Source of the DNA: Nanobdellota archaeon
Lineage (GTDB): Archaea; Nanobdellota; Nanobdellia; Woesearchaeales; SM23-78
NCBI GenBank assembly: GCA_018819305.1
Contig: JAHJQO010000014.1
Span: forward strand, 34,832-98,831
Reading direction: 5' to 3'
DNA length: 64,000 nt
Positions 36,774 through 54,709 of the stretch are shown piece after piece; position 1 is the first letter of the stretch, and each line of letters starts with the position of its first letter. Under the pieces are notes generated by a model that saw only the letters and a program-made list of their open reading frames with translations, was not told the DNA's origin and did not search any database. The position numbers and the translations under genes were made by a program.

Positions 36774-38258
36774 TTAAATTATATTTCTAATATCTTTGAT
36801 TTGGTCATAGCGATCATTTGCTATTGAACGAATATCTGATTCAGTTAATGATCTCTTTACGTTTTGCCCCATTTCTTTGAATTCAGCATCTATTGCTCTT
36901 AGCAAATCTGATAACCCCAAACCTTTATCGTGTGAATTACCCTTGCCATTGCCAATTTCTCTTTTTATTGCATAATCAGCTGCTCTCTGGACACTGGCCT
37001 CAATAATTGCGCCACTAACAAGATTCTTATATCTTACTGGTTCTGATGTTTGATCATAGAATTCCATTAAAGCAAGTACGCTCTCATCTGAGAATAATTT
37101 TTTTACACCTTCAGATGATAAGTAGTCTACTTCTGGAAAACCAGCTTTTTTTGCTGCTTTTCTTAATTCCCTGTTAAAGGGCATGTCTTTTAGATAAATA
37201 TCATAAATCTGCTTAGCACCTTTATCATTAGGTCTTGGAATTTCCAGTTTTCTATCAATTCTTCCAGGCCTTAAAACTGCAGGGTCTATCATATCCTCCC
37301 TGTTGGTTGCCATGACAAGAACAACATTGTAATTTGAATCAAGACCATCCATCTCTGCCAGGAACTGAGGAACTATGGAATCATAGATATCTGTGGATAT
37401 ACCACTTCCTCTTCTTTTGAAAACTGATTCTGCCTCATCAATAAATATTACGACTGGCTCATTGGTTTCAGAACTCTTGTCTCTTGCACTTGCAAATATT
37501 TGCCTGATTGTTTCTTCTGATGCTCCGACATATTTGTTTAATATTTCTGGTCCTTTGATGTTCAGAAAGTAGCCGTTTTGATTATTGCCTGTTCTGGCTG
37601 CTATTGACTTTGCAAGATTATAAGCCATTGCTTTTGCCACAAGAGTCTTTCCACATCCTGGAGGACCGTAAAGCAACACTCCCTTTGGAACCCTCTTATT
37701 ATATTTCTTATAGAGATCCTTGTGCAAAAATGGTGTCTCAATAACATCTTTTATTGTCTCTATAATATGATCTAATCCACCTACTTTGCTCCATGGAATT
37801 TCAGGTACTCCTTCTAAAGTAAATCTCTTGTTTTGTTTTCCAAGGTTATCTAGAACTACAGATTCACTATCATCAATAACTACACAGTCTCCTCTTTTTG
37901 CACCATTATTTCCATAAAGGATGGTTTGATTACCGTTTATGTTTACTTTGACTCTATTATTATCTAGAACTTCGCTAACAACAACAACATTTCCTTCTTT
38001 TCTTGGATCAGATACATCTACAATAGCATAATTATTATTTAAAGAAACACTTTTCCCTCTTTGCAGTTTGTCCTTCATTCTAGGATTATACGATACCTCA
38101 TAAGTTTGATTTCCAACTATCACTTCAACTTTTTTATCAAATACCTCTGTAATAATTCCTTTTCTAAGCGGCGGAAGTGATAATGATTTGATAATCTCTT
38201 CTTGGTCTGCAATTTCTTCTTCAAGCTTTGAAACTCTTTCTCTTAGATCTTGAGTCAT
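36774..38258 (-). CDS. AAA+ ATPase of the ARC/Mpa/PAN type: N-terminal coiled coil, tandem OB-like domains and an AAA module (proteasome-associated-ATPase-like unfoldase).
   Basis: Coiled coil RERVSKLEEEIADQEEIIKSL. Two OB-like beta segments. GVLLYGPPGCGKTLVAKAMAYNLAKS, GYFLNIKGPEILNKYVGASE, VIFIDEAESVF and ATNREDMIDPAVLRPGRIDRKLEIPRP are strikingly Mpa/ARC-like. Confidence 0.8.
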   Translation of the reverse strand: MTQDLRERVSKLEEEIADQEEIIKSLSLPPLRKGIITEVFDKKVEVIVGNQTYEVSYNPRMKDKLQRGKSVSLNNNYAIVDVSDPRKEGNVVVVSEVLDNNRVKVNINGNQTILYGNNGAKRGDCVVIDDSESVVLDNLGKQNKRFTLEGVPEIPWSKVGGLDHIIETIKDVIETPFLHKDLYKKYNKRVPKGVLLYGPPGCGKTLVAKAMAYNLAKSIAARTGNNQNGYFLNIKGPEILNKYVGASEETIRQIFASARDKSSETNEPVVIFIDEAESVFKRRGSGISTDIYDSIVPQFLAEMDGLDSNYNVVLVMATNREDMIDPAVLRPGRIDRKLEIPRPNDKGAKQIYDIYLKDMPFNRELRKAAKKAGFPEVDYLSSEGVKKLFSDESVLALMEFYDQTSEPVRYKNLVSGAIIEASVQRAADYAIKREIGNGKGNSHDKGLGLSDLLRAIDAEFKEMGQNVKRSLTESDIRSIANDRYDQIKDIRNII

Positions 38259-38860
38259 TTTCTCCCCCCTATTATTTTGTTTATTTTTTTGTTTATGATT
38301 TTATTTTTCATTATTCTTCTTTAGTTTTGATTCTTAATTTCCCCTATGTCTTCTTAATATATAGGATAGTGAATTGATAATATATACTTAACGTACATAC
38401 AGGCATTAAAACATGTTTTGTACATACTATTTTGACAATTTTTCATTTTCATCCGTTCATATTTTTAATCACTGTAAAGTTATTAATTATTTAAATATTT
38501 GTTGTTGATATTTCTACAACAGATATTTTTCTAGTCCTTGGCTTTCTGGACGATGCAGTTTGTAGTGTTTTTGCAAACCTTCTGCCCACTTAGCTTCTGG
38601 TAGTAATATTTCGTATCTCATCTTCCTATGATAACTACAAAGTAGTGACGATATATAAAACATTGTAGAAGAATTTTTGGATATACGCGTAAAGATGCTA
38701 CTTTTTTTTAGTTATAATCAATAAATTAATATAATGGTTTTATAAATGAAAAAATAATTTATTACGCTTAATAACTCTGCTAGGTTTTGTTTTTACAACT
38801 AAATAAAATCACATCTTATTTAAGAATAACTTTATAAAACTCAAAAAAGAACTAAATATC

Positions 38861-38956
38861 ATGACACGTATATGTATAGTTAAGAAGGAGAAATGCAGCC
38901 CTGTGAGCTGTGGAAATTTTCTTTGCATTAGAGTGTGCCCTCTGAATCGCAAGTAA
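38861..38956 (+). pseudogene. Orphan 31-codon fragment encoding an intact ABCE1 N-terminal 4Fe-4S motif (MTRICIVKKEKCSPVSCGNFLCIRVCPLNRK*).
   Basis: It matches the archaeal ABCE1 N-terminus (M.RIA.ID.DKC.P.KCG.FLCERVCPVNR). It is followed by a stop and sits in a different frame from the downstream genes. Confidence 0.6.
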
Positions 38957-39074
38957 TCGTATTGGTTGGGGAAAAATTTAAATAATGTGACCTTTTTCTG
39001 ATATCATCAAAGCTTTTTATTCCAAAAACTTCATCATTTTTTAGCAATTTAAACATTTTTTAAAGAGTGCAAAA

Positions 39075-40448
39075 ATGTTAAATTACAAAAATGACTCCTT
39101 ATTATTGAACAAAGAAACTGCTAACGATTTAATTAGAAATAAGAATACTGACTTCATTTTTATCGATAAAGAAAAGAAAATATTGAATTTATTCTCGGCT
39201 TTTGTAAAAAAAGATGACTTCATTAAGAAAGATGAACTATGTCAACCGCTACAAAAAACCATTTATGTGAAAATAACTCAAAAACTCTTAAATAAAATTA
39301 AAAACAGATTCAAAGATAAAAAAGAAATTATAATAATTCTAGAAAAATATACTGATCGAAGAATTGTCACAAAAGAAGGGGTTAATAGATGGTTTAACAC
39401 CAGAATAATTCCTTTTATTCTTTTAAGAATATTAAGCAAAGATAATGAAGAATTTGCAGAATTCATAAAAGAAATTGATTACATTACTGATTTCTTAAAT
39501 AAAAGCAAATTTTACTGTCCGAAAACATTAGATGAATTATTAACACCAAAAATATTTTATCTCTGTGGATGCTCAGTTGGAGACGGTCATATAGATAAAA
39601 CAGGCAAAAGATGGGTTTTGGTGGATGGAAGCTCTAACAAAGAAAGATTACTTCAATCTCACAAATTCGTAGTTAACTTATCAAATTTACTTGAAAATTT
39701 AGGGATGAAATCAAGTATAAAATTAAAGAAAACAAAATGTATTTTAACAGCAAATAACAAACCTTTTTGTAGGTTTCTAAACTTCTTCTTTGGCTTGCCT
39801 TATGGAAAGAAAAAAGAAGTTGTATTAAGAAAACCAATTATACTAAATCAGAGTAAGAAAGATTTAGAAAAATACTTCTGGAGAGGATGTTTTGACACAG
39901 ACGGGAGTGTGAATAAAGATGGTACAATAGATTTATGTTCTTCAGATAATAATCTACTAACTGAATGTGAATCATATTTGGAAAACATAGGTATTAAAAC
40001 AAAAAAAAACAATATATTAATTACCATTAATATTCAAGAACTAAAGAAATTCACACAAATCGGTTTTGCTCATCAACGAAAACAAAAAGAATTCTTAAAA
40101 ATACTTAGACGAGGATTAAAACAGGAAAAAATGAATATAAGAGACAGTGAAAAGGTAGATACAAATTTATCAAGGATACATGATTTAATAAGAATCGATG
40201 GCAACTACAGAATAAGAATTCACAGAAGAAACCTTAAAAAGAGCGATATTGATGAAGAGGGAATAAGAAAAATCATTAAAGAAATGTTTGGATATGATCT
40301 AAAAGAAACAAGGAAATTACTTTATTTCAAATCCAAAAAAGTATATGAATACTTAAATAAGCGTCTTAAATCAGAGTCATATTGGAAACCTATAAATACT
40401 CAAGAAGAAGCCCAATTATTAGAAGAATGGAATGAGGTTTGGAATTAA
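39075..40448 (+). mobile_element. Free-standing LAGLIDADG homing endonuclease gene (457 aa). Its stop abuts the ABCE1 start (TAAATG).
   Basis: The two dodecapeptide motifs are IFYLCGCSVGDGHI and YFWRGCFDTDGSV, ~110 aa apart. No intein splicing blocks (no N-terminal C/S, no terminal HN). Confidence 0.7.
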
Positions 40449-42185
40449 ATGACAAGATTAGCTATTGTTGACAATAACAAACTAAAAGATATGGCTTTGA
40501 AAAAACACATACAAAGTTTATGTCCTGTTAATAGAACAGGAAGTGATTGCATGTATTTTGAGGGTTCAAAGCTTTTAATAGATGAAGCTTTATGCATTGG
40601 ATGCGGAATTTGCACTAAACCCGCTTTAGAAGCAATTCACATAGTTAATCTGCCAGAGGAATTAAAAAAAGAACCTGTGCATCGTTATGGAAAAAATGGT
40701 TTTGCTCTTTACAGCCTGCCAATCCCAATCAATGGAAAAGTTGTTGGTATTGTTGGAAAAAACGGCATTGGAAAAACCACTGCTCTTAAAATTCTTGCAG
40801 GTATTGAAAAGCCTAACTTTGGAATTCCAGGGGCAGAAGCAAGTTATGATGAGTTGATTGATTATTTTAAAGGTAGTGAGGCGCAGGGTTTTTTTGAAAA
40901 GCTCAAAAAAGGCGAAGTTGTTATTAGTTACAAGCCTCAGCAAGTTGATTTGATTCCTAAGCAATACAAAGGAACTGTCAAGGATTTGCTTGTCAAAGTT
41001 GACGAGAAAAAAGAACTTGACAAAATGGCTGAAGTGCTAGAGTTAAAAGAGATTCTTGACCATGATATTTCTAAGATTAGTGGCGGTGAACTTCAAAGAG
41101 TTGCTATTGCTGCCTGTGTTCTGAAAAAAGCAAATGTTTATTTTTTTGACGAACCAACCAGTTTTCTGGATGTCAAGCAAAGACTTAAGATAAGTCAGTT
41201 CATAAGAAACCTTGTTAATGAAGAAACTGGCGTAATTGTTGTTGAGCACGACCTGATAATTCTTGACTACATGGCTGACTTGATTCATTTGATGTATGGT
41301 AAACCAGGTGCTTTTGGAGTTGTAAGTCAGCCAAAGAGTGCAAAAGGTGGTATTAATGTTTATTTGTCTGGATTTTTAAAAGAAGAAAATGTGAGGTTCA
41401 GGGATGAAACAATAAAATTTGAAGCCAGACCTCCTATTGACATGAAACGAATGCATTTATTAACAGAGTGGGAAGGTTTCAAGCAAAAACTTGAAAGCTT
41501 TGAATTAGTAGCAGAAAAAGGAAATATCTATAAGCAGGATATTGTTGGTGTTCTTGGAGAAAACGGCATTGGAAAAACAACTTTTGTAAGAGTTCTTGCA
41601 GGTGAAATCAAAGGTCATGAATTAGAAGGACTTGGAATAAGTTATAAGCCACAGTATCTTGATTCAAGTGATGAACTTGTTATGAGTTTTATTCCGCTTG
41701 CAGTTCACAAATATGATGCTCAGCTTGTAAAGCCACTGGGCTTAAAGAATTTATTAATGAGAAAATTAAATGAGCTAAGTGGTGGAGAGTTGCAAAGAGT
41801 GTGGATTGCAAAATGTTTGAGTGAAGATTCTGATTTGATTCTTATGGACGAACCATCTGCTTATCTTGATGTAGAACAAAGGCTAAGCTTAGGAAAGATT
41901 ATACGAGATATGCTAAAGATTACAGGCAGAAGTGCACTTATAGTTGATCATGACTTATTGTTTATTGACACAATTTCTGACAGGCTCACTGTTTTTGAAG
42001 GAAAACCAGCAGTGCATGGCAAAGTAACAGGCCCATTCCCAATGGAAGAAGGCATGAATCACTTCCTTGACCACATCGACGTAACCTTCAGAAGAGATGA
42101 AGAAAGCAAAAGACCTCGCATCAACAAGCTAGGCAGCCAAAAAGACAAAGAACAGAAAAGAACAGGAAAATTGTATTATTCTTAA
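40449..42185 (+). CDS. abcE1: ABCE1 (RNase L inhibitor/Rli1, ribosome recycling ATPase) with twin ABC domains. Its N-terminal FeS domain is degenerate.
   Basis: Two Walker A motifs (GIVGKNGIGKTT, GVLGENGIGKTT), two signatures (ISGGELQRVAIA, LSGGELQRVWIA), and a C-terminal ...KLGSQKDKEQKRTGKLYY tail. The N-terminus retains CIGCGIC but lacks the CxxxxCxxxCxxxCP Cys residues. Confidence 0.9.
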   Translation: MTRLAIVDNNKLKDMALKKHIQSLCPVNRTGSDCMYFEGSKLLIDEALCIGCGICTKPALEAIHIVNLPEELKKEPVHRYGKNGFALYSLPIPINGKVVGIVGKNGIGKTTALKILAGIEKPNFGIPGAEASYDELIDYFKGSEAQGFFEKLKKGEVVISYKPQQVDLIPKQYKGTVKDLLVKVDEKKELDKMAEVLELKEILDHDISKISGGELQRVAIAACVLKKANVYFFDEPTSFLDVKQRLKISQFIRNLVNEETGVIVVEHDLIILDYMADLIHLMYGKPGAFGVVSQPKSAKGGINVYLSGFLKEENVRFRDETIKFEARPPIDMKRMHLLTEWEGFKQKLESFELVAEKGNIYKQDIVGVLGENGIGKTTFVRVLAGEIKGHELEGLGISYKPQYLDSSDELVMSFIPLAVHKYDAQLVKPLGLKNLLMRKLNELSGGELQRVWIAKCLSEDSDLILMDEPSAYLDVEQRLSLGKIIRDMLKITGRSALIVDHDLLFIDTISDRLTVFEGKPAVHGKVTGPFPMEEGMNHFLDHIDVTFRRDEESKRPRINKLGSQKDKEQKRTGKLYYS

Positions 42186-42232
42186 CTTACCATTACAAAA
42201 TTAATAAAAAGCCAACATTTAAATATTATGTA

Positions 42233-43105
42233 ATGGTACTTATTCTTATGAGAGTAATAAAAAGAAAAAAAGGCAGCAAAGAATACTATTATCTTCAGCA
42301 TTCATTCAGAATAAAGGGCAAAGTGGTGACTAGAGAAAAATATCTTGGTAAAGAAATACCTGTAATCATAGAAGAAATAAAAAAAGCTTTTGAAGAAAAA
42401 ACATCTAAACAAGAATTGTATAAAAAACTAGAGAAAATAAAACAAGGCTTTCAAAAAGAGTGGAAAAAATACCCTGAAAGCATAAAAAACAAGATAAAAA
42501 AACAGATTTCGATAGAATTAACCTATAACACAAACGCAATAGAAGGCTCAACAATAACACTAGAAGAAACAAGAGAAATAATAGAAGACCAAATAGCGCC
42601 AAACAAACCATTAAAAGATGTAAAAGAAACAGAATCACACTCAGAACTTTTTCTAAAAATACTAAAAAACAAAGAAAAGATAAGCATAAAAACAATGATA
42701 AAATGGCACAAAGAACTATTCAAAGACACTAAACAAGACATTGCAGGAATAATAAGAGAATACAATGTGAGAGTTGGAAACCACACAGCACCTGACTGGC
42801 AAGAAATTAAAAAACTACTGAAAAAACTAATTGATTTCTATAAAAAAAATAAAGAAACAAACCCTGTTGAATTAGCAGCCAAAACACATTATCAATTCGA
42901 GAAGATCCATCCCTTTGGAGATGGCAATGGCAGAATAGGAAGACTCATAATAAATAATACGCTTTGGAGCGCAGGATATCCAATGCTGATAATCGAGTAC
43001 AAGAAACGAAAAGGTTATTACAAAGCATTGCAAAAAGACGAAGAAAAATTTTTCAATTATTTTGCAAGAAAATATTTGAAAGTGCATAGCAAATATTTGA
43101 AATAG
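42233..43105 (+). CDS. Fic/Doc family protein (AMPylation domain).
   Basis: Fic motif HPFGDGNGRIGRL (HPFx[DE]GNGR). Confidence 0.8.
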   Translation: MVLILMRVIKRKKGSKEYYYLQHSFRIKGKVVTREKYLGKEIPVIIEEIKKAFEEKTSKQELYKKLEKIKQGFQKEWKKYPESIKNKIKKQISIELTYNTNAIEGSTITLEETREIIEDQIAPNKPLKDVKETESHSELFLKILKNKEKISIKTMIKWHKELFKDTKQDIAGIIREYNVRVGNHTAPDWQEIKKLLKKLIDFYKKNKETNPVELAAKTHYQFEKIHPFGDGNGRIGRLIINNTLWSAGYPMLIIEYKKRKGYYKALQKDEEKFFNYFARKYLKVHSKYLK

Positions 43106-43110
43106 AAAAA

Positions 43111-44235
43111 TCACCTCAAACTTTCATATCCGCCAGGAATTCCTTTTTTTGAAAGCACTATCTGCCATAACTGGTTGTTTCTTGCTCTGAAACCTCCTGC
43201 ACAGCTTAGTATATAATATTCCCACATTCTAAAGAATCTGTCATCGTATTTTGGATTCTTTTTTATTTCATTCCAGTTCTTTGTAAAATTATCATACCAA
43301 GCCATTAATGTTTTATCATAATCTGCTCCAAAATTATGCCAGTCTTCAATCATAAACAATCCTTCGATTGCTTTTGTCAGCTGAACAGGAGAAGGAAGCA
43401 TTCCATCAGGAAAAATATATTTATGCATCCATGGCTCTCCTATAACAGAACTCTTGTTGCCTGCTATTGTATGCAAGAGAAACAAACCGTCATCTTTTAA
43501 ACAATTATTTGCAATTTCCATATAAGTTCTATAGTTCTTATATCCGACATGTTCTATCATTCCAACAGATACTATTCTGTCAAACTTGCCTTTAATATTT
43601 CTGTAATCTTCTAATTTTATTTCAACATTTAATCCTTTACATATATCTACTGCAAGTTTTGCCTGTTCTTTGGAAACAGTTATACCCACAACTTTTACTT
43701 TACATTTCTCTGCAGCATATTTTGCAAAGCCTCCCCAACCGCATCCTATATCAAGTACTCGCATGCCTTTTTTTAATCCTAGTTTTTTGCAGATTAAGTC
43801 AAGTTTTGCTTCCTGCGCCTGGTCAAGGGTTTTTGCATTTTTCCAATAGCCGCAGCTATAATTCATTCTTTTATCAAGCATTAGTTTGTATAGGTCATTG
43901 CCTATATCATAATGAGCTTTCCCAATATTATATGCTCGGGATTTTTTTTGAAGATTAAACAGTTTTGCCTTCAGAGCAATCATCAATACAGGTGCTCCTT
44001 GCACTTGGTCTCTTAAATTAGCCATTAAGAATTTATGAAAGAACTGATCAAGTGCTTTGCAATCCCACCAGGCGTCCATATAACTTTCTCCAAGGCCTAG
44101 TGTGCCCTGGCTAAGAACTCTTTTGTAAATTCTTTCATCATGCACTTGAATGTCCCAAGGCCTGCTGCCATTAATCTTCACATCAGCAAGAGCTAATATT
44201 TGTTTTGCAGTTTGTATATAATTGTTTTTTGCCAT
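43111..44235 (-). CDS. Cyclopropane-fatty-acyl-phospholipid synthase family SAM methyltransferase.
   Basis: VLDIGCGWGGFAKYAAEKCKVKVVGITVS (the CFA synthase/mycolic acid MTase motif I region). The length (374 aa) and overall collinearity fit the CFA family. Confidence 0.75.
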   Translation of the reverse strand: MAKNNYIQTAKQILALADVKINGSRPWDIQVHDERIYKRVLSQGTLGLGESYMDAWWDCKALDQFFHKFLMANLRDQVQGAPVLMIALKAKLFNLQKKSRAYNIGKAHYDIGNDLYKLMLDKRMNYSCGYWKNAKTLDQAQEAKLDLICKKLGLKKGMRVLDIGCGWGGFAKYAAEKCKVKVVGITVSKEQAKLAVDICKGLNVEIKLEDYRNIKGKFDRIVSVGMIEHVGYKNYRTYMEIANNCLKDDGLFLLHTIAGNKSSVIGEPWMHKYIFPDGMLPSPVQLTKAIEGLFMIEDWHNFGADYDKTLMAWYDNFTKNWNEIKKNPKYDDRFFRMWEYYILSCAGGFRARNNQLWQIVLSKKGIPGGYESLR

Positions 44236-54606: not shown

Positions 54607-54709
54607 AGCGGGAGGGGAGACTCGAACTCCCGATCAGTGGGTTGCAGCCACTTGCCTTAGCCGCTTGGCCTTAGGAAAAAACCTCAAAAATGATAGTCTT
54701 TACTCCCGC
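54607..54709 (-). tRNA. tRNA-Cys (anticodon GCA) with a ~31-nt non-canonical intervening sequence between nt 9 and the D-stem (approx. 54670..54700). The mature length is ~72 nt; CCA is not encoded.
   Basis: Acceptor GCGGGAG/CTCCCGC (7 bp), U8A9, D-arm GCCA-AGCGGCTA-AGGC, anticodon arm AGTGG-CTGCAAC-CCACT (anticodon GCA), variable GATC, T-arm GGGAG-TTCGAGT-CTCCC, discriminator T. The 5' acceptor strand is separated from the D-arm by 31 nt. Confidence 0.6.

Follow-up and report, generated by a model that had tools for sequence, protein, structure and literature searches.

The DNA studied here is a window of 64,000 nucleotides (nt) from a Nanobdellota archaeon (assembly GCA_018819305.1, contig JAHJQO010000014.1, positions 34,832 to 98,831 of the forward strand). 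The subject of this work is a locus in this window in which a free-standing LAGLIDADG homing endonuclease gene lies between a short fragment of ABCE1 and a complete ABCE1 gene, all on the plus strand. The locus opens with a mini open reading frame (mini-ORF, 38861..38956) of 31 codons and a stop, which encodes MTRICIVKKEKCSPVSCGNFLCIRVCPLNRK* with an intact CX4CX4CX3CP motif. The spacer that follows (38957..39074) has a length of 118 nt and is AT-rich, with 25 % GC. It leads to the endonuclease gene (39075..40448), which encodes 457 amino acids with two LAGLIDADG motifs in a frame that differs from that of the mini-ORF. The stop codon TAA of this gene directly abuts the ATG of the ABCE1 open reading frame (TAAATG), which extends over 578 amino acids (40449..42185). 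ABCE1 itself consists of two parts of different origin, codons 1–65 (40449..40643) with a foreign, putatively one-cluster iron–sulphur (FeS) domain of the single-cluster clade, and the native body with the hinge region, the two nucleotide-binding domains and the C-terminus (40644..42185).

The initial annotation had named these parts from the letters alone, and the profile searches agree with it. The mini-ORF, which had been read as the first [4Fe-4S] motif of ABCE1, is matched by Pfam Fer4_RLI (E 5e-4) and, over model positions 1–30, by the RLI model of NCBIfam. The double-motif endonuclease gene starting 118 nt after the mini-ORF is borne out by the coordinates and by two LAGLIDADG_3 stretches (Pfam, E 1.3e-12). 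The gene straight after its stop is indeed a full-length ABCE1, as it matches the RLI equivalog model NF009945 end to end (762 bits at a cut-off of 469, model positions 1–589 of 592) and contains ABC_tran twice. A second ABCE1 or a second homing endonuclease was not found within the window, only ordinary ABC ATPases with 25–30 % identity. NCBI annotates the source as a Nanoarchaeota metagenome-assembled genome (MAG), and the relatives belong to the Woesearchaeota. Three contigs with the identical ABCE1 are on file in NCBI, JGI, Logan and ENA, a JGI contig contains the identical endonuclease, and the same junctions are seen in two other genomes. Because these records and junctions come from independent assemblies, an assembly artefact is ruled out, and the sequencing frameshift that had been suggested for the locus is discarded for the same reason.

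The chimeric ABCE1 and its FeS domain

For comparison of ABCE1 proteins, we define clade A as the two-cluster ABCE1s P0004–P0030 and clade B as the single-cluster ABCE1s from P0046 onward. Residues 1–30 and 31–70 of the window ABCE1 share about 60–80 % identity with clade B and 33–57 % with clade A. For residues 71–578, taken by segment, identity is mostly 51–80 % to clade B and mostly 73–93 % to clade A, so that the segment identities switch abruptly near residue 70. Over the segments of the native body, identity to P0004–P0030 is mostly 75–90 %. Clade-diagnostic residues show the same switch: at positions 1–63 there are 16 of the single-cluster type and none of the two-cluster type, while positions 66–578 hold 47 of the two-cluster type and 6 of the single-cluster type. 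The breakpoint is located at AIHI|VNLPEEL (residues 64–66) in a strongly conserved hinge. In neighbour-joining (NJ) trees, the N-terminus falls among the single-cluster ABCE1s at 100 % bootstrap and the body is nested in two-cluster clade A at 84 %. We conclude that the window ABCE1 is a chimera, in which an N-terminus from the single-cluster clade is joined to a body from the two-cluster clade.

The foreign segment lacks ligands that are found in canonical ABCE1. The initial annotation had noted the loss of three motif-1 cysteines and of the KCP cysteine, and the alignment to human ABCE1 confirms this, as L12, L17, I21 and A59 replace C16, C21, C25 and C65. The equivalents of C29, C38, C55, C58 and C61 are kept. 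The window ABCE1 thus does not have the eight cysteines for two [4Fe-4S] clusters. The two ligand sets of ABCE1 are tabulated in a 2026 review as C16-C21-C25-C65 and C29(38)-C55-C58-C61 (PMC13255074), and the section of this review that cites Barthelme 2007 gives no fewer than seven of these eight cysteines as required for viability of yeast. As one complete ligand set is absent and the other is kept, the window ABCE1 and the relatives with the same pattern are expected to hold a single cluster.

This pattern is widespread. The closest 120 ABCE1 homologues include 111 full-length proteins, of which 66 share the same cysteine pattern together with the same one-residue gaps, the type sequence being MTRIAVVDNxKLKDMxKKKHIQSLCPVNR...CIGCGICxxAAPEAI. 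The single-cluster clade (proteins P0031–P0120, Woesearchaeota/Nanoarchaeota) comprises at least three conserved subtypes. There are also intermediates: P0077 has lost motif 1 and kept KKCP, and at locus L027 a histidine replaces the first cysteine. At loci L028 and L029, the ABCE1 has the single-cluster cysteine pattern, and neither an endonuclease nor an upstream relic is present, which speaks against the possibility, left open by the initial annotation, that the degeneracy was caused by an event at this locus. The one-cluster N-terminus characterises a Woesearchaeal clade as a trait of that lineage and is not decay due to this locus. The idea of an FeS-degenerate ABCE1 therefore stands as a description of a lineage, but the word degenerate does not, since exactly one ligand set is absent and the segment is under purifying selection. 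For codons 1–65 of the cassette, nonsynonymous divergence (dN) is 0.02–0.05 and synonymous divergence (dS) 0.4–1.0, with a dN/dS of about 0.05. This strong purifying selection on the new FeS segment indicates that it is translated and functional. A search of the literature for a Woesearchaeota/Nanoarchaeota ABCE1 clade without the equivalents of C16, C21, C25 and C65 returned nothing.

The native N-terminus is still present at the locus. The clade A N-terminus MTRICIVKKEKCNPxxCGNYLCIRxCPVNRKG is the type preserved in the mini-ORF, which shares 81 % identity with residues 1–31 of P0006; this protein belongs to clade A, as do the closest relatives of the body. The ATG of the mini-ORF is preceded, at a distance of about 26 nt, by a TATA-like box, ATAACTTTATAAAA (38826..38839, plus strand). 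It aligns column for column with the box of the endonuclease-free two-cluster loci L003 and L030 and with the one that precedes the L001 relic, and we infer that it belongs to the native ABCE1 promoter. Mini-ORF and box are colinear with the promoter and the first 31 codons of the intact genes at L003 and L030. Homology to these empty-site genes ends after codon 31, just past ...CPxNRK, and a search of the other frames past this point gave nothing convincing for a continuation of ABCE1. We therefore take the mini-ORF as the native start of ABCE1 in a displaced position, and the same relic is present in L005 and L001. Among window, L005 and L001, the relic has diverged to the same extent as the body (71–83 % nt identity), with changes by codon position of [5,2,16], [5,5,17] and [1,3,12]. 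These are mostly third-position changes with low dN, as would be expected if every relic had belonged to a functioning gene up to the arrival of the cassette.

The endonuclease family and its place before ABCE1

The window endonuclease belongs to a rare family. A word-indexed search of 5.8 billion clusters returned 33 homologues, and at E<=1e-30 only 25 representatives, out of ~276 relatives in all, were found among 1.84 billion. No relatives were found in viral contigs. In 25 aligned members, the acidic residues of YLCGCSVGDG (D170) and FWRGCFDTDG (D274/D276) are invariant, and D276 aligns with the glutamate of GLFDAEG in PI-PfuI. The nearest solved relatives by sequence are PI-PfuI (E 5e-4) and also PI-SceI. 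The AlphaFold2 model (pLDDT 92.2, pTM 0.87) has the tandem alpha-beta-beta-alpha-beta-beta-alpha fold. In a Foldseek search against the PDB, it matches I-Tsp061I with a TM score of 0.68 and I-DmoI with 0.57–0.67 (target-normalised), and further matches are the endonuclease domains of PI-PfuI and TliVMA as well as WhiA. The fold matches cover the endonuclease core of ~190 residues, with the intein structures aligning over about 180–260 columns centred there. Outside of this core, residues 1–150 are predicted to be mostly helical and residues 335–457 alpha/beta. Compared to the L005 copy, dN/dS is 0.18. Given the invariant catalytic acids, the LAGLIDADG fold of the model and this dN/dS, the window gene is a real gene that probably encodes an active nuclease.

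Two signals accompany the endonuclease gene. The first is a conserved 36-nt element, ATTGGTTGGGGAAAAATTTAAATAATGTGACCTTTT (38961..38996, plus strand), which resembles a B recognition element (BRE) with a TATA box. Its consensus, AYTGGTTGnGGAAAAATTTAAATAAtnTGnCCTTTT, lies within about 100 nt 5' of the endonuclease start in most aligned loci. Only a weak copy or none is seen in L019, L021 and L027, and L001 has retained the element despite deletion of the endonuclease. From its sequence, the element appears to be an archaeal BRE/TATA promoter. A derivation of the element from cysteine motif 2 (CIGCG...CPF) was considered and is not supported. The two appear colinear by eye, but in a global alignment the DGKVGINE region competes with motif 2 as the counterpart, and z scores from a shuffle test were mostly <2 with an inconsistent best position. 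The second signal is a Shine-Dalgarno-like GAGGT (40434..40438, plus strand), 10 nt 5' of the ABCE1 ATG and within the endonuclease codons for WNEVW. The C-terminal W-N-x-V-W is nearly invariant in the family and is encoded in the window copy by ...TGGAATGAGGTTTGG... (40419..40451). The conserved C-terminus of the endonuclease may thus double as ribosome-binding site of ABCE1. The last ~25 endonuclease codons, including GAGGT, survive the deletion of the endonuclease in L001.

About ten ORFs of 70–160 amino acids (such as P0309, P0316, P0339, P0340, P0357, P0361, P0371 and P0386) match only the C-terminal ~60–150 residues of the endonuclease, and truncation by contig ends is possible for them. 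These short ORFs would fit a recurrent erosion from the 5' side in which the end adjoining ABCE1 is kept.

Related loci were drawn from genome and metagenome collections together with exact look-up. Wherever downstream DNA is available, endonuclease relatives with 45–78 % identity are co-oriented with a complete ABCE1 and located a few to ~18 nt 5' of it. This linkage is found in L006–L011, L017–L021, L026 and L027, with ABCE1s that are 44–57 % identical to that of the window, and L022 and L023 contain 5'-truncated endonuclease remnants in the same position before ABCE1. ABCE1 5' relics upstream of the endonuclease are found in L005, L009, L010, L011, L019, L021 and L026. Their ends vary, with MPKRIAIIERQKCHPQDCGDYLCAKLCP in L009, MKRLAIIRKEECHPQECQELCARLCPVNKKGEDCI in L021, ...CGDF in L011, ...KCHP in L010 and an end after IEKE in L019, and the relic in L026 is frame-broken. 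The relics are followed by the 36-nt element, subject to the weak or absent copies in L019 and L021. Each relic is unlike the N-terminus of the functional ABCE1 downstream of it. A different arrangement is seen for the occupied locus L007 and its empty counterpart L032, where an insertion of 1463 nt has taken the place of 29 nt containing the native TATA box. Here no relic is found, and the cassette carries the 36-nt element in place of the native TATA region of L032.

Further relatives of the endonuclease stand beside other genes. Distant relatives (~30 % identity) are located just 5' of Trp/Tyr-tRNA synthetase genes (L015 613..3131, L025 1..1772) and slightly overlap these class-I synthetase genes (PF00579, E about 1e-45). 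The endonuclease ORF of L015 opens with MNFTVTPWDVKGEVDY before the conserved NDPLL, a stretch of 16 residues similar to N-termini of the synthetases (..IDPWGQVNIKNY and ..INPWKSIDVKDY). This opening may be a displaced 5' relic of the synthetase in frame with the endonuclease, in which case another essential translation gene would have met with the same strategy. In L016 and L024 (3851..7200), a 513-residue relative with 25 % identity is convergent with ABCE1, with a 3' overlap of 4 nt; it could be another lineage of the family at the opposite end of ABCE1, or a coincidence. In L014 (1343..2799), a relative directly follows a 197-residue ORF that contains only Pribosyltran_N, the N-terminal domain of phosphoribosyl pyrophosphate (PRPP) synthetase. 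An intein may be present here, or the prs gene may be split or interrupted.

Cassette history, mechanism and alternatives

The locus exists in several states in related genomes. On two contigs of one MAG (L002/L005), we observe the same relic, the same spacer, an endonuclease with 78 % amino acid identity and a chimeric ABCE1 with 84 %. L001 has the relic, a spacer of about 100 nt including the 36-nt element, and the same chimera, and its endonuclease is gone except for the 3' end described above. Orthologous alleles free of the endonuclease, for which the initial annotation had proposed to look, exist as empty sites at L003, L004 and L030, in addition to L032 for L007. In L031, the intact two-cluster gene is found with only 41 nt of upstream sequence. 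Empty, occupied, deleted and truncated copies are thus all present, as would be expected for a mobile element, and the carriers are polyphyletic.

The cassette has a history of its own. A monophyletic group of the three chimeric genes is found in 0 % of NJ bootstrap replicates of the body tree and in 83 % of those of the N-terminus tree. The body of P0002 is nearest to the intact two-cluster proteins P0010, P0004 and P0013, and the P0013 locus, L030, is confirmed to be free of the endonuclease. For L001 and L002, synonymous differences amount to 12/63 in the codons up to the maximum-likelihood breakpoint at codon 66, versus 230/440 downstream of it (p 6e-7). The two pairs with the window show the same trend more weakly, with 24/72 and 227/409 for the window and L001 (p 5e-4), and 23/75 and 185/413 for the window and L002 (p 0.02). 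The endonuclease likewise has a dS of 0.63 versus a body dS of at least 1.8 or saturated. The cassette, consisting of the endonuclease and 65 codons, is therefore younger at synonymous sites than the gene that flanks it. Trees, synonymous differences and divergence of the relics together indicate that the cassette moved between hosts that had already diverged or, put differently, that it does not share the history of the DNA to its left and right.

We consider it probable that this locus is a homing cassette by which, in a DPANN (Woesearchaeota/Nanoarchaeota) genome, the 5' end of ABCE1, an essential gene for ribosome recycling, is replaced. The cassette contains the TATA-like element, a free-standing monomeric double-LAGLIDADG endonuclease and a replacement for ABCE1 codons 1–65. 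In a host ancestor with canonical two-cluster ABCE1, the endonuclease would cut the gene between codon ~32, where the relic ends, and codon ~65, where the co-converted tract ends. The break would be repaired from a donor that carries relic, element, endonuclease and 5' segment in this order. The right end would pair in the conserved hinge and first nucleotide-binding domain, with the crossover to the host at IVNLPEEL (codons 64–66). The left end would pair with the donor relic, so that the recipient keeps its own first ~31 codons behind the native promoter as a dead stub. Junction, spacer, endonuclease and the foreign 65 codons would be copied into the recipient. Carrier alleles would then be resistant, as their matching region is either of one-cluster type or, in the relic, deleted. 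The foreign segment stems from a one-cluster lineage, and the host would therefore make a chimeric one-cluster ABCE1.

Expression of the essential gene would be the second consequence of this arrangement. ABCE1 would be expressed from the native promoter, the cassette promoter or both, through the endonuclease gene, with coupling at TAAATG or at the embedded GAGGT. Under this model, the endonuclease can be lost only by deletions that spare these signals. The remnants in L001, which are the promoter elements and the endonuclease 3' end with GAGGT, match these needs. The sequences show the anatomy of the locus, the chimera with its breakpoint, the linkage of the endonuclease family to ABCE1, the different states of the site, the separate history of the cassette and the purifying selection on endonuclease and new FeS domain. 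Nuclease activity, the position of the cut, the relic as left arm and the roles of promoters, Shine-Dalgarno sequence and coupling are steps that we infer.

Several points weigh against the cassette model or limit its reach. The trees were built by NJ from short alignments, with 65 columns in the case of the N-terminus. Saturation is nearly reached by the dS values, and the cut site is bracketed only to ABCE1 codons ~32–65. The endonuclease-free status of the database ABCE1s used for comparison was assumed from the rarity of the endonuclease and checked at a handful of loci. As the three chimeras share the left junction, independent invasions would require crossovers within a homology arm of ~90–130 nt, which seems plausible. 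Alternatively, there could have been one invasion followed by recombination of the bodies between lineages, which would still give a mosaic history. For the deeper endonuclease-bearing loci, the distances correlate with r of 0.65 for endonuclease and body, 0.60 for N-terminal 65 codons and body, and only 0.21 for endonuclease and N-terminal 65 codons. We therefore rejected the idea that the 5' segment travels together with the endonuclease across all loci that carry it. As the segment does not track the endonuclease elsewhere, co-transfer is demonstrated only for the window, L001 and L002.

Four other explanations can be compared with a homing cassette. A single ancient insertion of the endonuclease could have duplicated the native 5' end, after which the downstream copy diverged and lost its cysteines. 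This would explain why the endonuclease is flanked by two ABCE1 starts and why the left junction is common to the window, L005 and L001. It corresponds to the first option of the initial annotation, which came closest to our conclusion in proposing an endonuclease insertion. Its duplication part fails, as the downstream N-terminus is a foreign FeS segment that matches, with 70–80 % identity and including its indels, a large endonuclease-free single-cluster clade with full bootstrap support. With the strong purifying selection on this segment, the polyphyly of the carriers within clade A by gene body and the synonymously younger age of the cassette compared to its flanks, duplication becomes very unlikely. 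Even less credible is an intein or an intron (group I, group II or bulge-helix-bulge) in one continuous ABCE1 with a frame change due to sequencing or assembly error, to which we assign almost no weight. The closest solved relatives of the endonuclease are the intein endonucleases PI-PfuI and PI-SceI, and LAGLIDADG_3 is typical of inteins. However, the endonuclease has its own ATG and stop in all loci read (more than 15), and the downstream gene opens with a complete, conserved and selected N-terminus. The endonuclease starts with MLNYKND and ends with WN, and the next residue is Met, so that neither a Cys/Ser nucleophile nor HN is present. The mini-ORF is closed by a stop and does not share the frame of the endonuclease, a Hint domain is not found, and the parts that flank the endonuclease core are helical or alpha/beta, with fold matches confined to the core. 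Rfam families, those of intron RNAs included, gave no match in 38000..42500 on either strand up to E = 1, a search that did not specifically include bulge-helix-bulge motifs. The junctions, finally, are identical across independent assemblies. The intron or intein-like element with a frameshift of the initial annotation is thus dismissed.

The other two explanations take the protein-coding parts of the locus as functional in a different way. The LAGLIDADG protein could be a domesticated, WhiA-like DNA-binding partner of ABCE1, with relic and chimera as unrelated accidents. Its fixed place beside ABCE1, its full-length conservation with a dN/dS of 0.18, the correlation of its distances with those of the host ABCE1 bodies and the presence of WhiA among the fold matches would agree with this. 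WhiA is not known to have the acidic catalytic LAGLIDADG residues, whereas the catalytic acids of both motifs are invariant here. The family is also very rare while ABCE1 is abundant in these archaea, there are empty sites in the closest relatives as well as deleted and truncated copies, and relics and replaced 5' ends recur across many lineages with a cassette that is younger than its flanks. Domestication is therefore improbable, though somewhat less so than duplication. The mini-ORF, on the other hand, could be a functional four-cysteine micro-protein of 31 residues that, for example, supplies FeS chemistry in trans to a one-cluster ABCE1. It has kept the native promoter, the ATG and all four cysteines, and its substitutions are mainly in third positions with low dN. 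The same pattern is equally expected from a recent invasion, and the relic is diverged like the body and unlike the cassette. Relics elsewhere are cut at other codons and have lost cysteines (L010, L011, L019) or are frame-broken (L026), and the equivalent of C65, the fourth ligand of the lost cluster, is absent from the peptide. A role as micro-protein is as improbable as the duplication.

Beyond the homing cassette itself, we considered whether the endonuclease family could drive the evolution of the ABCE1 FeS domain in DPANN archaea. The endonuclease would target the DNA that encodes motif 2, and resistant alleles in which this region is altered or lost, among them one-cluster alleles that are without the C65 equivalent and hence without one entire cluster, would spread with the cassette or survive loss of the endonuclease. 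Motif 2 is non-canonical in 11 of 12 endonuclease-bearing two-cluster loci versus 9/46 and 30/120 relatives, a possible hint at the recognition site from a count that ignores kinship. The variants at these loci include CTSCGIC, CVSCGIC, CTGCSIC, CTGCTVC, CTGCHIC, CIGCNIC, CSGCQIC and others. The non-canonical motif-2 alleles L032, L033 and L034 have no endonuclease, relic or remnant, and the association between motif-2 variants and endonuclease appears to be one-directional at best. We regard this scenario as doubtful. If true, a selfish pressure would help to explain the clade-wide loss of a supposedly invariant and essential cofactor site, and the unusual motif-2 variants of endonuclease-bearing two-cluster genes would be explained as well.

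Known systems, neighbouring genes and significance

The closest analogue to the window element is found in the mORFs of fungal mitochondria, which are described for atp6 in Allomyces macrogynus, for atp6, atp9, cox2 and nad3 in Glomus, for atp9 in Rhizopus and for cox2 in Mortierella (PMC3630166). In an mORF, a C-terminal gene segment of foreign origin comes with the endonuclease ORF, and the native C-terminus is left downstream (PMC3630166). In both cases, a LAGLIDADG (or GIY-YIG) ORF together with a foreign terminal segment leads to a hybrid host gene, and the displaced native segment stays beside the element and resembles that of close relatives. In contrast to the mORFs, which swap the 3' end, the window element swaps the 5' end, it is located on an archaeal chromosome instead of an organelle genome, and its target is ABCE1. 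As a consequence of 5'-end replacement, it is the relic that retains the start codon with its promoter, while the essential gene comes to lie downstream of the endonuclease. Furthermore, the window endonuclease is a separate cistron while the mORF endonuclease is often fused in frame, and the swap in the window would change the cofactor content from two clusters to one. By this analogy, the window element would work like an mORF without being a member of this group, given its 5' end and archaeal host.

Free-standing homing endonucleases of T4-like phages and cyanophages (SegF, SegG, MobE, F-CphI) are intergenic and located beside their presumed target gene. In what is called intronless homing, they spread by double-strand-break repair with co-conversion of flanks, and the carrier alleles are resistant. 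The window element shares the position beside the target and the co-conversion of flanks. The phage enzymes differ in that they are GIY-YIG or HNH enzymes in a viral setting, with homology provided by syntenic neighbours, and neither a relic of the target nor a carried gene segment is known there. Papers on such phage enzymes include PMC2790892 and PMC6083498. As far as the description of fractured genes in Dassa et al. 2009 (PMC2677866) extends, a free-standing endonuclease lies between complementary halves of a gene that are rejoined by split-intein trans-splicing. These share with the window, in that description, the free-standing endonuclease between two host-gene pieces and the origin from environmental microbial genomes. 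Compared with the fractured genes of that description, the window pieces overlap, both being N-termini, there is no intein, and the downstream gene is a complete gene by itself.

The archaeal LAGLIDADG enzymes I-Tsp061I and I-DmoI from rRNA introns and PI-PfuI and TliVMA from inteins have the monomeric double-motif fold and the conserved acidic residues in common with the window endonuclease. Unlike them, the window endonuclease is neither intron- nor intein-borne, and it has about 150 additional N-terminal and about 110 additional C-terminal residues with no assigned fold match. The window ABCE1 has the FeS domain, the hinge and the twin nucleotide-binding domains of canonical ABCE1/Rli1 from human, yeast, Pyrococcus and Sulfolobus. 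While canonical ABCE1 has eight cysteines and two [4Fe-4S] clusters, the window protein and the Woesearchaeal clade are without one ligand set. In the library searched, we found no literature that joins ABCE1 with a homing endonuclease or LAGLIDADG with RNase L inhibitor, and no published description of a 5'-end mirror image of an mORF-like cassette. The sole paper found on ABCE1 and DPANN appears to concern the evolution of release factors.

The surroundings of the locus contain further genes. A Fic/DOC-family gene is located directly 3' of ABCE1 (42233..43105, plus strand), and Fic is likewise found downstream in L001; in related clade A loci, Lit and Endo_dU genes are downstream of ABCE1. 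Upstream, there is an AAA ATPase of the proteasomal type, which is PAN-like and has an OB N-domain (36774..38258, minus strand). A methyltransferase similar to cyclopropane-fatty-acyl-phospholipid synthase (43111..44235, minus strand) is encoded beyond the Fic/DOC gene, and such an enzyme is unusual in an archaeon with ether lipids. At 54615..54670 on the minus strand, Rfam reports a partial tRNA match with 34 bits over model positions 9–63, for which ARAGORN makes no call. Split, intron-containing or degenerate tRNAs are known in DPANN archaea, and this match may represent one of them.

To our knowledge, an endonuclease that carries the replacement for a displaced gene part is documented only for the 3' ends of fungal mitochondrial genes. 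In the window, a homing endonuclease colonises an essential chromosomal gene without intron or intein, and the essential gene ends up downstream of the parasite. This strategy may be general in DPANN genomes, because relatives of the endonuclease precede Trp/Tyr-tRNA synthetase genes in a similar manner. The enzyme is also a possible new meganuclease, compact and with a known target gene, that could be of use in engineering. For ABCE1, the locus represents horizontal transfer at the level of a domain within a universal translation factor, and such a mosaic history would mislead ABCE1 trees. Both the strategy of the endonuclease and a natural one-cluster ABCE1 would surprise specialists. A large archaeal clade, and a chimera on a body of the two-cluster type, apparently work with the ligands for one cluster, which amounts to a natural experiment. 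With it, the role of the second cluster of ABCE1, a long-standing question, becomes directly testable.

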